Source of the DNA: Escherichia coli
Lineage (GTDB): Bacteria; Pseudomonadota; Gammaproteobacteria; Enterobacterales; Enterobacteriaceae
DNA length: 64,000 bases
Assembly: GCF_009931435.1 (NCBI RefSeq)
Contig: NZ_CP043414.1
Strand: one strand, 5' to 3'
Positions within the stretch are counted from its first letter, which is position 1, and each line of letters opens with the position of its first letter. Shown piece after piece: positions 18,001 to 24,000 of this stretch. A program made the position numbers.

Positions 18001-21000
18001 TTCAGTAAATACAGGGTTACTGATAGTGACACCAATTTCAAAACAACCTTCAGACGTATTAACGTTTGGTAATAACGTTTCCATTATCGCGTCCTCAACA
18101 ATGAATTTTGTGATGCGGTGCCTGGTGCTTCCAGGTGACGTTAACCAGTTAACAATTAACGCCGGATACAGAGAATCCACCCATAACACTGTTTTTGGTT
18201 TTAACTGTTCCGCGTGCGCTCAGCCGCATTCACCGCATCACAAAATTCACTTTAAAAAGGGCGGCAGAGCAGTCACGGAGTAAAACTGATACCGCCAAAC
18301 GTCACCAGAAAATTGATAACAGAGGGCGTTGCAGCGGGGTTGTCACTTAAGCGTATGGTCAACCTGACAACCCGGTGTCCTCAACGGGGGAAGGAATAAC
18401 CCCGCCATACTTACCGCCGCGCCATTTCGCGGATTGCCACAACCGGAAGCGCACGGTCGACGAAAATTTAACGACAGGCTATCTATGAACCAGCTACCTC
18501 GCCGTGCGCTTTCGCGTTATGGTCTGACTTTTCAGGGAAATATCCTTTCAGTAAACTGTCAGTGCCGGATGCTCACCCGTGTCCGGCGCAAGCACTCCAC
18601 CTTACCCGTGGAGAACTCCTTAATTACCAACCTTAGCTTCGTTGGTTAGCTATTAACGCGGGTATGTAATCATTCTGGCAATGGTTAATGCCGCTGCTTT
18701 TTCCAGATTGGTGATATCCTGCTCCAGAGAGGACAGATTTTCAGCCTGCTTAGCCCTGACTTCATTAGCCCATTTCAGATCCTGCGCTGCATTAATTTTC
18801 TGGTGCATCCACTCATAAAGTTCATCATTGGTATAGTCTGGCGCGATGATGACGGGTTCTCGTTTCTGCATACTGATTCCTCGCGGTGCTGTTTCGCTTA
18901 TCAGCCATTAGATTTTGCCGAACTGGAAAGCGCCTGTTTAAATTCGTTGAAGCTGTGAGCTTCTTCGCCTTCGGCAAGGCCTTCGAAGTATTCTTCGTAA
19001 GCCTTTTCCATGATTGTGTCGAAATCCATATCACCCACCTGAATTTCTTTCCAGCCAGCGACGCGCTCCAGATTCGGTTTTAAACGTTTTGCTTTTGGTA
19101 TACGTCATTGCGGTGAACGTACCGTCCTGGTTGGGGAACACGCCACATACCAGAGATTCGCTGTTGCCAAGATTGATAGTATCCATGCTGACCTCATTTC
19201 CCCTTAACGCCGGGGTAGCGGAACAAAAACCTGCTGCATAGTTATTAAAGTTGTACCCTGCCGTCATGTTCTTACGCCTCGGGCTGGCTACTTAACCCCT
19301 GACCACTGCCTGGTAACTCGAAGTATTGCCCTGCATTCTGTGGAGCGGGGTGAGTTGGTATGAAAAGAAGGATACCCATAGGTATTTAAAAAGTAAATAC
19401 CCATGGGTGACTTTTTGCAGTGTCTTAACTGGTGACTAGTTGTTTGGTGAGCTATGATGCGTTTTGTGCTTTCTTTTTACGGATTTCTTCGTAGATCATA
19501 TTGTAATACTGTTTTTTCTCTTCAAGAGTTTTTAATAAGTTATCCGCTTCACTTTCTGGCAGTTCGTCTAAGAGATCTAAAAAAATACGTTGTCGTGGCG
19601 TTAGAACCCTTGTTTCATAACTGGAGGCTGTGTTCGTTGATGATGAAACGATACCATCCATCCATCCCCGGGGTAACCCAAAGGACTCTTCGATAATCTC
19701 CACCATATCATCAGCGATCCGTTTTTTTCCCTTTTTCCCCTCTGGGTACAACATTCTTGATACATAAGAAGGCTCGCGCCCGATCTTTCTGGCCACGTTA
19801 ACCGCTTTACCATCGCATTTCTCATCACGAATTTTGATGAGTTGCTGTCGTCTAAATTCATATTTGTCCATAGGTAAATAATAGATGCGATTACTGCAAG
19901 GTAAACAACCTGTGGGTATTGACTTTTGTTTACCTGTAGGTATTCTTTGCTGTGTTTACTAAGGAGTAGCTATGGAAGAATTAAGAATATTTCTCAATTC
20001 TCTTTCGTCAGATGAACAGCGTATGTTTGCATGCGAGTGTGGTACCAGCATCGGTTATCTAAGAAAGGCATTGAGTAAAGGTCAAGTGTTAGGGGCATCG
20101 TTATGTGTCCTTATTGAGCGAGCCAGTAATGGTGAAGTTACACGTCAGCAACTAAGGCCTTTTGATTGGATGAATATTTGGCCCGAGCTGGAAGATACCA
20201 AAACGTTAACACAACCACTTTCTAGGAGCTTGATTCATGAAAATCAAGCATGAACACATCCGCATGGCGATGAATGCCTGGGCGCATCCGGACGGTGAAA
20301 AAGTTCCGGCAGCTGAAATAACCAGGGCTTATTTTGAACTGGGTATGACGTTCCCAGAACTGCATGACGACAGCCATCCGGAAGCCCTGGCTCGCAATAC
20401 CCAGAAAATTTTCCGCTGGGTAGAGAAAGACACCCCTGATGCAGTTGAAAAAATTCAGGCGTTGTTACCAGCGATCGAAAAGGCAATGCCACCTTTGCTG
20501 GTGGCCAGAATGCGCAGCCACAGTTCAGCTTATTTTCGGGAGCTGGTGGAGACGCGGGAGCGACTGGTGAGAGACGCTGATGATTTTGTCGCAGTGGCAA
20601 TCGCCGGTTTCAATCAGATGAACCGTGGTGGCCCGGCAGGAAATGCTGTGGCAGTGCATTGAGTGATAATAGCCATATCGAATCGCTTCCGGCAACTCGT
20701 GAGTAAAAAGATTCGGTATCAGAAGAGGTGAGTATGGCTAACGCCTGGCTCAGATTATGGCATGACATGCCAAATGACCCTAAGTGGCGAACAATTGCCA
20801 GGGTGTCAGGGCAGCCAATTGCAACAGTGATGGCAGTGTATATCCACCTCCTGGTGAGCGCGTCACGAAATGTCACGCGAGGTCACATTGATGTCACGAC
20901 AGAAGATTTGGCAAGTGCGCTCGACGTGACAGAAGAGGTAATTGATTCAATTTTGCAGACGATGCAGGGGCGGGTACTTGATGGTGATTTAATCACTGGA

Positions 21001-24000
21001 TGGGAAAAACGCCAGGTGCTTAAAGAGGACAACGGCAATATTTCGCAAACCGCAAAATCTCCTGCAGAGCGCAAGAGGGCGCAGCGAGAGAGGGAAAGAA
21101 AGCGGGAACAAAATGGCGATTGTCACGGCGCATCACGAAATGTCACGCACATGTCACGACGAGTCACGACAGATAAAGATACAGATAAAGATACAGATCA
21201 AGAAGATCAAAACACTATGGTCCATGGCGTAAAAAACGCTACGAACCAGGCAGGGGATGTTCAGACCGTCAATCCTGGTCAGCCAGCAGGCACGACACCG
21301 GAAGCCGATTCAGCGTATGCGCTGAAACCCGATTCGGGCGCTGTGCAGCAGGTGATGACCCAAAGGCCGGAACAATCACACCAACTGCAGCAGCCTGAAG
21401 CCGATTCCGCCATTCAGCGGGAAGCCGATCGGGTAGTCCCGGAAAACACCGGGCTGTCTGTGGGACGAGTGGATTATCCGGATGTGTTCGAACAGGTCTG
21501 GCGGGAGTACCCGTTGCGTGCCGGAGCAAACCCGAAGAAATCCGCTTTCAGTGCCTGGAAGGCCAGATTACGCGAGGGGGTGCCACCAGAGGCCATGCTG
21601 GATGGCGTGAGGCGTTACGCAAGATACTTGGCGGCTACCGGGAAAACGGGAACGGAATTTGTTCAGCGAGCGACGACGTTTTTTGGACCGGACCGGAATT
21701 TTGAGAACCCCTGGTTGCTCCCGGTAAGCGGCACGAACAACCAGCGTTGTGTGAATCATATTTCTGAACCGGATAACGAAATTCCGCCGGGCTTCAGGGG
21801 GTAAGTGTTAATTTCTGGTCATGAGGTAATTTTCAGGAGGGCTTGTGGCAAAAGTTTTTACACAAGAAGAGCGGGAAAAAATTAAAGGGCAGGTTGTTGA
21901 ACTCGTACGCCAGAGTGGGCGCGAGACGTTACGACAACTGGAAACTAAAACTGGGGCAACAAGATATCTGATGAGCGTTCTGGCCAGAGAGCTGGTTGCC
22001 AGTGGCGATGTATACAACTCTGGTTACGGGTTATTCCCGTCTGAACAGGAGCGTAAGGACTGGCAAAATGCCCGTAAAAAGCTCTCAAGGGCAAAGCTGA
22101 AGAAACCATCTGCGGTTGATCCGGACCTTATCTGGTCATTACCTGACGGAGAAATACGTCGCTACGATAGTTGTCTAAACATAATCTGTCGCGAGTGCCG
22201 GAAGAGCGAAGTTATGCAGCGCATTATGGCATTTTATCAGGGAAATGTTAGGTATTTTAGACGTTACTAGATTAAAGGGCATTAGTTCAGATATGCATTG
22301 ACATTTTCATGGCACAAGGTAGAGCTAGCGTGGTTGTTCGCTTTGTGCCAAGAGTGGTCATTGATAATATTTTGGTGGGTTACATCTGTCAATGTTTCAG
22401 GTGATATGATATACAAATAGCCAGACTTAGACTGGCATGCTGTTTATTTTTATATTATGGGTGTGCCACATGGATTTAAAACTTATTGAGATATGACATG
22501 GATACTTTTCATAATATTTTGCTTGAGCACATAGACAGCCTTTTAAAAGAGAGACTTGATTTATCTGGTGACGCTGATATCGAAAAAGAAATTAATAACC
22601 TAATTCCCAAAATAGTCATTGTCGTTAAAAAATCTCTTATTGGCTCGGCCAATGCAATGCTTAGAGAACATCGTTCTCTTTGTGATGAATTTGTTGAGAG
22701 AAATATTTCAAGATGGGCAGAGGCTTTTGATTTGCTCGAAACACTTATAGTGATATGCACGGAGTCCGGTGAAGAGTTCAATCGTTCTTATAGACCACAA
22801 GCTGCCTCTGAAGAGGATGTGGTTTTTGATTTAGTCGTTCGGCATCACGCAAGAGCTTGCCACATCGCCAACGAAATTTTGTGTCTCTTAAAGAATGGAT
22901 TTGCAGATGCTGCCCAAGCGAGATGGCGAGCACTTCATGAGGTAGCAGCCACAGCTATGTTTATAGCAAAGCATGGAAAAGAGTGTGCTGAGCGCTTTTA
23001 CTACCATGAAGTGGTTGATTCATATACTGGAATGTTGGAACACAAAAAGTACGAGCACCGGTTAGAAGCAAAAGGTCCAACTATTGAAGAAATAGCTGAG
23101 TGCAAAGTTCAATTTGATCTATTAATAAAAAAATACGGCAAAAAATATGCAGATAATTATGGGTGGGCATCTTATATTTTCCCTAACCATAATAAAGTGG
23201 GGTTTGGAGCTATTGAGAAAGATGTTCAGTTAGAACACATGCGCCCTTATTATAAGTGGGCGAGTCAGAATGTACACACCGGTTCCAAGGCAATGAGAAA
23301 TAGGCTTGGTCTCTGTGAAACTGGTGATGATATATTATTGGTCGGGCAAAGTGATTCAGGAATGGCTGATCCAGCCCATGCTACTGCTATTAGTTTGATG
23401 CAGATTACTGTGACACTTTTATTCTTAAAACCAACCATTGATCATGCCGTCATTTCAAAAATAATACAGGATTATTCTGATGAGATTGGAAATGTATTTC
23501 TTAAAATTGATAAGGGTAATTAAAAATTGGAAAAGTGATAGTATATTCTTGTTTTTTTACTGGTAATTAAATGTTTTTAAAGTTACTAGTTCACACCTAT
23601 CGAACGTCCGGTCTTCGCCCAAAGCGGACTAGAAGGTTAGCTTGCGTCGGATTTGGCGTATTTAAAGAATCGCTGGTGGTTACTGGTTGTTGTGTTCCAT
23701 TTCTACAGAACAAAATCACAGAAACTATACCCAATAGTTGTATCTCATCAATGATGAGAGAGCCTCATATTTATCAGGACTGGTGTACGTCCAATACAGG
23801 AGGTTGTCGTGCTGGTTCTCAAATGTGCGCTGGCTATTGCAGCTGTAATGGCAATTTATTGTCTTGCTGTTGTTCTTATGGATCGCCTTTCTGATTGATT
23901 TTATATTGGCCAGGTGACGGGAGTTAAGTAGAATGGCTGCGGGTGCTTGAGGCTATCTGTCTCAGGCATGAACACCAAAGGCAGATAGAGAAAAGCCCCA

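Follow-up and report, generated by a model that had tools for sequence, protein, structure and literature searches.

A 64,000-nucleotide stretch of the Escherichia coli contig NZ_CP043414.1 (assembly GCF_009931435.1), hereafter the window, carries a lambdoid prophage whose replication initiator gene contains two arrays of the hexamer GTCACG at helical spacing, the second followed directly by an AT-rich repeat. We propose that both arrays, together with the AT-rich repeat, probably constitute the vegetative replication origin of this Qin-like prophage, placed inside the gene for its own initiator. A preliminary description of this DNA, made from the letters alone, had pointed to origin-like iterons embedded in the prophage replication gene, and this interpretation is supported by the computational and comparative evidence presented here.

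Two Phased Hexamer Arrays and an AT-rich Repeat Lie within the Initiator Gene

The open reading frame (ORF) that contains the arrays matches PHROG 3729, 'replication initiation protein', with an E value of 1e-255, and the RefSeq coding sequence (CDS) at the identical locus is named 'phage replisome organizer protein'. On the + strand, cluster 1 is made up of GTCACG at positions 20862, 20872, and 20893 and of GTCACA at 20882, with steps of 10, 10, and 11 bp. Cluster 2, also on the + strand, combines GTCACG at 21122, 21142, 21153, and 21163 with ATCACG at 21132, giving steps of 10, 10, 11, and 10 bp. The distance from cluster 1 to cluster 2 is 270 bp (90 codons), and a near-identical 46-bp segment is common to both. 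The hexamer also occurs once in inverted orientation (CGTGAC on the + strand), 32 bp 3' of cluster 1. Directly after cluster 2, at 21169-21203, the 12-mer ACAGATAAAGAT is found in two exact copies and one 91% copy (≈2.9 copies), and the GC minimum of the gene lies at 21175-21224, with a GC content of 0.32 and an A-over-T skew of +0.53. The features given in the preliminary description, namely two GTCACG clusters at 10- to 11-bp spacing, an AT-rich direct repeat after the second, and a location within a prophage replication initiator gene, are therefore all present, with small corrections.

Across both strands of the whole window, GTCACG occurs 34 times, compared with an expectation of 27 ± 5, and 8 of these 34 copies fall inside 307 bp. 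Of all hexamers in the window, GTCACG has the tightest clustering. Besides the arrays of the initiator gene, we found no second GTCACG array and no further iteron array of this prophage in the 64 kb.

Codon Choice Argues for Selection on the DNA Itself

Within the initiator gene, copies of the hexamer are read in each of the three frames and encode SR, VT, GH, and CH. With the protein held fixed and the codons resampled from local usage, 0.69 copies of GTCACG are expected on the + strand (maximum of 5 in 20,000 trials), compared with the 7 observed. For the degenerate form of the hexamer, synonymous resampling gives 1.9 expected copies as opposed to 10 observed.

We further compared the codons with those of nine homologs, picked by protein patterns only, that are 59 to 72% identical and derive from Pseudomonas and Aeromonas phages and from metagenomic viruses. 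At invariant residues, pairwise codon identity is 0.91 in the iterons (16 codons) and 0.39 elsewhere (41 codons), a difference with a Mann-Whitney p of 6e-8. In cluster 1, the codons GCG TCA .. GTC ACG .. GGT CAC .. GTC ACG are each present in 9/9 homologs, whereas the Arg codon between two repeats varies. The inverted copy is less conserved; its Val codon, GTG, is found in 9/9 homologs, and the flanking codons are variable. Because the hexamer is read in three frames, because resampling falls short of the observed count, and because the codons are frozen at the iterons, these data indicate that the repeats are maintained by selection on the DNA itself. The DNA-level constraint suggested earlier for this region is thus upheld by both the synonymous resampling and the codon identity among the nine homologs.

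The Arrays Are Inherited with the N-Terminal Domain across Phage Relatives

Relatives of the initiator in other host genera keep the arrays in place. Pseudomonas phage phita81A has GTCACG arrays of 4 + 4 copies at the same positions, and Aeromonas phage pAEv1818 has 4 + 3 copies, also at the same positions, followed by GATAAAGAT repeats. PhiR5_2 and a Stx1c phage have the C-domain alone in common with the E. coli protein (≈80% DNA identity); they carry another N-domain and zero copies of GTCACG. DNA similarity to the Pseudomonas phages stops at nucleotide (nt) 473 of the gene, and similarity to the phages that share only the C-domain starts at nt 482. The arrays are co-inherited with the N-domain, and the repeat sequence differs between N-domain lineages. 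The preliminary description had named homologous initiators that keep the protein and lack the repeats as the observation that would speak against an origin. This comparison did not overturn the proposal, as all homologs with at least 59% identity retain GTCACG arrays. In most of the distant homologs, arrays are found at the same place with a different hexamer: in Ralstonia phage Hennie, the clusters are 271 bp apart and contain 5 and 4 copies of GCAACG at a spacing of 10/11 bp, and a Manatee Spring virus carries one group of 3 and one of 5 CGAACGC copies.

A family-wide comparison used 80 viral loci, retrieved via conserved peptide patterns; the Ralstonia protein headed the query alignment, whereas the E. 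coli protein used by itself retrieved only near-identical E. coli prophages. To count as array-bearing, a locus needed two or more pairs of one hexamer in strict 10/11-bp phase within gene nt 301-520. A phased array is present in 57/80 of these protein-selected loci, as opposed to 0/74 control segments downstream and 0/78 upstream. In the array-bearing loci, the median distance from the last repeat to the start of the 40-bp GC minimum is 0 bp (interquartile range −8 to +6), with a GC content of 0.36 versus 0.59. The hexamer types among the relatives are GCAACG (15), GTGACG (13), GTCACG (13), AACGCC (13), and GTAACG (7). Cluster 1 is lineage-restricted, being absent from many relatives, and has no AT-rich neighbor, and for these reasons it may be an auxiliary or regulatory array.

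A DNA pattern search for three copies of GTCACG in 10-bp steps matched at least 120 viral loci, and among the matches listed, 72 arrays lie in or beside an N-domain homolog, on the same strand. Also among the matches listed are 48 viral contigs that carry GTCACG arrays in 10-bp steps but no N-domain homolog detectable by tblastn (within loci L092-L211). Many of these 48 (for example, L102, L109, L166, and L207) have a basic RERKR-type stretch, then the array, and then an (ACAGAT)n or (AGAAG)n repeat, and some array contigs of alphaproteobacterial appearance use the palindrome GTCACGTGAC.

The Encoded Protein Combines a Predicted Winged Helix with a DnaT-like Tail

An AlphaFold2 model of residues 1-165, based on a 78-sequence alignment (mean pLDDT 78), places a compact helical fold that includes a beta wing at residues 16-93, with pLDDT >90 for aa 11-90. 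The predicted helices span residues 16-25, 29-45, 56-63, and 67-77, and the wing spans residues 78-86. On the basis of this model, we describe the N-terminal domain as a winged helix and the presumed iteron binder. The Pfam profile Phage_rep_org_N (PF09681) scores 16.5 bits, relative to a cut-off of 23.3 (E = 0.009), in an alignment that spans profile positions 1-119 of 121. A basic helix, AERKRAQRERERKREQ, is predicted at aa 110-126, just 5' of cluster 2, and pLDDT is <50 from residue 138; cluster 2 and the TDKD repeat are accordingly modeled as coding for a largely disordered linker. Cluster 1 encodes a helix end and loop (aa 43-55) of the folded domain, and this loop accepts 7-aa insertions and changes with the hexamer type. 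The repeats had been described earlier as translating into SRNVT-rich, low-complexity protein, which agrees with the disordered linker predicted for cluster 2 but does not apply to cluster 1, whose product is part of a confidently folded, presumed DNA-binding domain.

At the other end of the protein, the last 25 residues (21727-21801, ending SEPDNEIPPGFRG) are identical to E. coli DnaT 155-179 at 15/25 positions (60%; E = 5e-8). The tail motif SEPDxxIPPGFRG stands at the C-terminus, and matches in NCBIfam and the PDB are confined to this tail. The comparison of the C-domain with DnaT was made on trimmed domains, the untrimmed comparison being dominated by the common N-domain; at the profile level, the trimmed C-domain weakly resembles the C-terminal domain family of DnaT (42% probability in hhalign, E = 2.6e-4). 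Pfam PF17948, the DnaT three-helix single-stranded DNA-binding domain, has no match in this protein but does match close relatives from O157 and Aeromonas that have the same N-domain. Unlike DnaT, for which BLASTP aligns the tail only, the protein has neither the N-terminal oligomerization domain nor the acidic PriB-binding linker that we looked for, and its N-terminus is a predicted winged helix, consistent with a putative origin binder rather than a restart factor. Overall, the DnaT-like tail may serve as a contact for DnaC or DnaB. The initiators of PhiR5_2 and the Stx1c phage, with their other N-domain, have the same DnaT-like tail, and in these phages, a gene for a DnaC homolog follows the initiator gene, an order that mirrors the host dnaT-dnaC operon.

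Initiator Alleles of E. coli Differ in Repeat Number

The initiator gene is present nearly full-length in 1,645/5,426 complete E. coli genomes (≈30%), and part of the gene is found in 74%. E. coli alleles of the initiator span 302 to 374 aa, with the indels falling in the arrays and repeats. Copy number in cluster 2 ranges from 3 to 6 across alleles, and the number of TDKD units is likewise variable. Many E. coli and O157 alleles (loci L118, L149, and L175) have an in-frame 21-bp insertion (7 aa, TCHGVSL/R) in cluster 1 that adds repeats within the folded N-domain. Changes in repeat number arrive as in-frame indels, of 21 bp in cluster 1, because the putative origin is also coding sequence, and from lineage to lineage, the encoded peptide changes along with the repeats. 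Farther downstream, a 36-bp direct repeat, 72% identical and 96 bp apart (21298-21333 and 21394-21429), encodes PEADSA motifs in the linker, and alleles of 324 aa are missing exactly 32 residues (96 bp) between its copies. Exchange of the C-domain type takes place exactly at the AT-rich repeat, where allele L190 switches C-domain.

Comparison with Characterized Origins

The arrangement has marked similarities to that of phage lambda. In both, the repeats lie inside the initiator ORF, at gene nt 349-433 for the lambda iterons and nt 389-435 for cluster 2, between an N-terminal origin-binding module and a C-terminal module, with an AT-rich stretch directly 3'. The gene order, cro, cII-like, initiator, and ren-like, corresponds to lambda cro, cII, O, P, and ren minus P. 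Lambda iterons are dyad-symmetric. There are four of them, each of 18 bp and at a spacing of 20 to 24 bp, whereas the cores described here are 6 bp long, all direct, and 10 to 11 bp apart; moreover, a second array lies inside the N-domain, and a P gene is lacking. The likeness to lambda ori in gene O that had been drawn previously is thus sound with respect to the layout, the relative position, and the AT-rich neighbor, but not with respect to the protein, for which homology was not detected, or to the iterons, which are not of the 18-bp dyad type.

Our analysis suggests that the architecture resembles SPP1 oriL in gene 38 more closely than lambda ori. The SPP1 origin is embedded in gene 38, with short iterons (AB boxes) and an adjacent AT-rich unwinding element, and experiments demonstrated that 356 bp of it suffice for replication in vitro (PMC5737612). 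In gene 38, repeats recur every ≈10-11 bp at gene nt ≈360-410, and a 9-bp AT-rich repeat coding for low-complexity residues comes next. Layout and relative gene position are the same as in the E. coli prophage, and RefSeq labels both proteins 'replisome organizer', although the SPP1 protein, G38P, and the E. coli protein have only mosaic PHROG families in common. SPP1 also differs in having its own loader and helicase (G39P and G40P) and a second site, oriR, neither of which is present in this prophage. In these three initiators without detectable mutual homology, that is, the one described here, lambda O, and SPP1 gene 38, the origin repeats are found ≈350-450 nt from the start codon, and in all three, an AT-rich stretch coding for a low-complexity linker comes after the repeats (L296 35939-36026 for SPP1 and L295 1035-1119 for lambda). 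Very short (6-8 bp) repeat arrays beside an AT-rich region are also known from SaPI/PICI-type ori and from the type I iterons of phage P4. In the SaPI/PICI and P4 systems, the origin is located outside or 3' of the gene for the initiator, which is itself a helicase or primase.

A Model for Initiation and the Evidence that Weighs against It

A plausible course of initiation can be drawn from these features. After derepression, the early rightward transcript would produce the 356-aa protein, as suggested by the gene order and promoter-like sites. The N-terminal winged helix would then bind (AT)GTCACG as a row of monomers along one face of the DNA, one per turn, at the five sites of cluster 2 and, 270 bp upstream, at the four direct sites and one inverted site of cluster 1 as an auxiliary array. 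The resulting nucleoprotein complex would destabilize the A-rich segment at 21169-21224, and the C-terminal domain, with its DnaT-like tail, could bring in host DnaB-DnaC.

Several observations count against this reading. Support for binding, melting, and origin activity in this family is all comparative. With regard to the family, 23/80 relatives are below the array threshold, and Microcystis phage Mwe-JY25 has no clear array. Hexamer type tracks the N-domain clades only partly, with GTCACG recurring in several mixed clades; a strict rule of one hexamer per clade is rejected for this reason, and because the hexamer follows the clades only in part, the specificity determinant need not be the winged helix. 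Foldseek matches of the predicted fold in the PDB are not significant (E > 0.3) and are mostly generic winged-helix binders (such as MarR/MepR, CAP, ArsR, and TFE). At the level of homology, the Phage_rep_org_N match stays below its cut-off, the protein has no match to Pfam Phage_rep_O (PF04492), the hhalign probability for lambda O is 0.2% (with a single-sequence template and hence low power), and hhalign, again with a low-power, single-sequence template, detects no homology to SPP1 G38P. Finally, the function of the tail is not established even for DnaT itself (PMC4132743; PMC13377028).

Alternative Explanations for the Repeats

Among other explanations, the one that fares best has the initiator, or another phage protein, binding the arrays in the service of control (autorepression, a transcription roadblock, titration or 'handcuffing', or exclusion of related superinfecting phages), with the origin located elsewhere. 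Iterons commonly serve initiation and control alike, and the absence of cluster 1 from many relatives, together with its lack of an AT-rich neighbor, means that at least this cluster may be regulatory. In addition, plasmid-borne ori-lambda sequences are reported to inhibit lambda-type phages (PMC3349717). This explanation nevertheless has to contend with the AT-rich minimum directly 3' of cluster 2, which is found family-wide and is a hallmark of an unwinding element, and with the window holding no other iteron array of this prophage that could take the role of origin; we regard it as unlikely overall. A more specific candidate, an immunity operator, is ruled out by the zero copies of GTCACG between the repressor and cro-like genes.

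Considerably less probable is a function of the arrays in the mRNA, as a structure or a site for an RNA-binding protein, or as a target of a host DNA-binding factor. The arrays are transcribed, and the hexamer types have in common an ACG core that one factor could read. The conserved inverted copy, however, points to duplex DNA, and the presence of the same GTCACG array in phages of three host genera, with other hexamers in relatives, argues for a phage-encoded reader. Two candidates in this category were rejected: an RNA-level function, as the clusters fold no better than shuffled sequence (z = −0.44 and +0.72), and DnaA boxes, which occur at chance level in the window and are absent from the array region.

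We attach slightly less weight still to the idea that the AT-rich stretch and the repeats act above all as a hotspot of recombination, or as a module junction, for exchange of N- and C-domains. Module boundaries do coincide with the AT-rich repeat, and copy number is polymorphic. Such a junction is, however, expected as a consequence of an origin-encoding linker, as in lambdoid O genes, and it would leave unexplained the one-turn phasing, the conservation of the hexamer across phages of E. coli, Pseudomonas, and Aeromonas, and the array inside the N-domain. Least credible, to the point that we would set it aside, is that the repeats are a by-product of a low-complexity, SRNVT-type protein linker, without any role at the DNA level: a disordered linker is indeed encoded by cluster 2 and the TDKD repeat, and linkers are often repetitive, but the use of three frames, the frozen iteron codons amid drifting neighbors, the inability of resampling to reach the count, and the correspondingly different peptide in lineages with another hexamer all contradict it.

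Prophage Context and a Second Array in the Window

The prophage is integrated beside rspAB and contains int, xis, a RecE-like exonuclease gene, dicB, ydfC/ydfB, hokD, ydfU, an antiterminator gene, and lysis genes, and it is from this gene content that we identify it as a Qin-like lambdoid prophage. Locally, the order of genes is repressor (− strand), cro-like, YdaT/cII-like, initiator, and DUF977/Ren-like (Table 1). The rightward promoter-like site between the repressor and cro-like genes would transcribe the cro-like, YdaT/cII-like, and initiator genes and would thus cross the putative origin. The annotation of the prophage lists no helicase or helicase-loader gene, and the same is true of Tritos, a deposited phage that shares the module. 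The cro-like and YdaT/cII-like ORFs overlap by 17 nt (20237-20253). Pfam assigns this pair to the YdaS/YdaT 'toxin' families, and PHROGs assigns it to repressor and CII-like activator families.

Table 1 Features of the initiator gene and its surroundings, in window coordinates.
Feature	Position	Strand	Basis or remark
Repressor gene	19452-19871	-	Gene identity based on Pfam/PHROG
Divergent promoter-like sites between repressor and cro-like genes	19878..19946	.	Consensus scan only
cro-like gene	19972-20253	+	
YdaT/cII-like gene	20237-20662	+	
Initiator gene, 'phage replisome organizer', 356 aa, containing the putative origin	20734..21804	+	ORF, PHROG 3729, RefSeq CDS
Coding part for predicted N-terminal winged-helix domain, aa 1-98	20734..21027	+	AlphaFold2, Foldseek
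Iteron cluster 1, four direct (AT)GTCAC(G/A) copies	20862..20898	+	Within the coding part for the folded N-domain, aa 43-55
Single inverted hexamer	20925..20930	-	Same place in Pseudomonas and Aeromonas phage homologs
Coding part for predicted basic helix, aa 110-126	21061..21111	+	AlphaFold2; order of basic stretch, array, and low-complexity repeat also found in unrelated-looking viral ORFs with GTCACG arrays
Iteron cluster 2, five direct copies, putative core origin array	21122..21168	+	Encodes disordered linker (predicted)
AT-rich, A-skewed stretch with ACAGATAAAGAT repeat, presumed DNA unwinding element	21169..21224	+	Also the boundary for exchange of N- and C-modules
Polymorphic, deletion-prone linker with 36-bp direct repeat	21298..21429	+	Repeat family and allele comparison
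Coding part for C-terminal domain, presumed helicase/helicase-loader recruitment module	21436..21801	+	DnaT-like tail and weak profile match
DUF977/Ren-like exclusion protein gene	21845..22270	+	Directly 3' of the initiator gene, in the place of P followed by ren in lambda

A second, unrelated iteron-like array is located elsewhere in the window. It consists of at least six copies of AAAGTGAGGA-type repeats, some of them degenerate, in the intergenic segment 41170-41370 (region 39754-41400), directly 3' of a 471-aa ORF that bears the annotation 'helicase RepA family protein' in other genomes of E. coli, and upstream of small ORFs and an SSB gene. This array has the look of an origin belonging to another mobile element, perhaps a satellite or a PICI-like island.

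Implications for Phages with a Single Replication Protein

That an origin can lie inside the gene for its initiator is a textbook principle. For the origin proposed here, we found no description in the literature on GTCACG/TGTCACG iterons or on replisome-organizer origins of E. coli prophages, and the origin is not annotated. According to a 2025 survey (PMC12315714), no study has addressed lambdoid phages that have an O-like gene but neither loader nor helicase, and how such phages replicate is not understood. The location of the putative origin, taken together with the DnaT-like C-terminus, offers a concrete, testable model for these O-only lambdoid phages, and the model covers prophages of Shiga-toxin-producing strains whose relatives have the same N-domain and origin. 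The family also provides a natural set of iteron/initiator specificity variants and a clean case of DNA-level selection over coding sequence.

More tentatively, the E. coli initiator may belong to a large family of one-protein replication modules that extends across phyla, with members in E. coli, Pseudomonas, Aeromonas, Ralstonia, cyanophages, and metagenomic viruses, in which the origin lies in the initiator coding sequence, sometimes twice and then also within the part for the folded DNA-binding domain, and in which loading of the host helicase imitates the restart protein DnaT, by way of the C-terminal domain and the SEPDxxIPPGFRG tail, and does without a phage loader. In such a module, a change of iteron specificity would necessarily rewrite part of the protein that reads the iterons. 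The advance would be incremental unless the mimicry of DnaT holds. If it does, the tail would identify the long-sought element of DnaT that engages DnaB-DnaC, and it would explain how the unstudied O-only lambdoid phages replicate.

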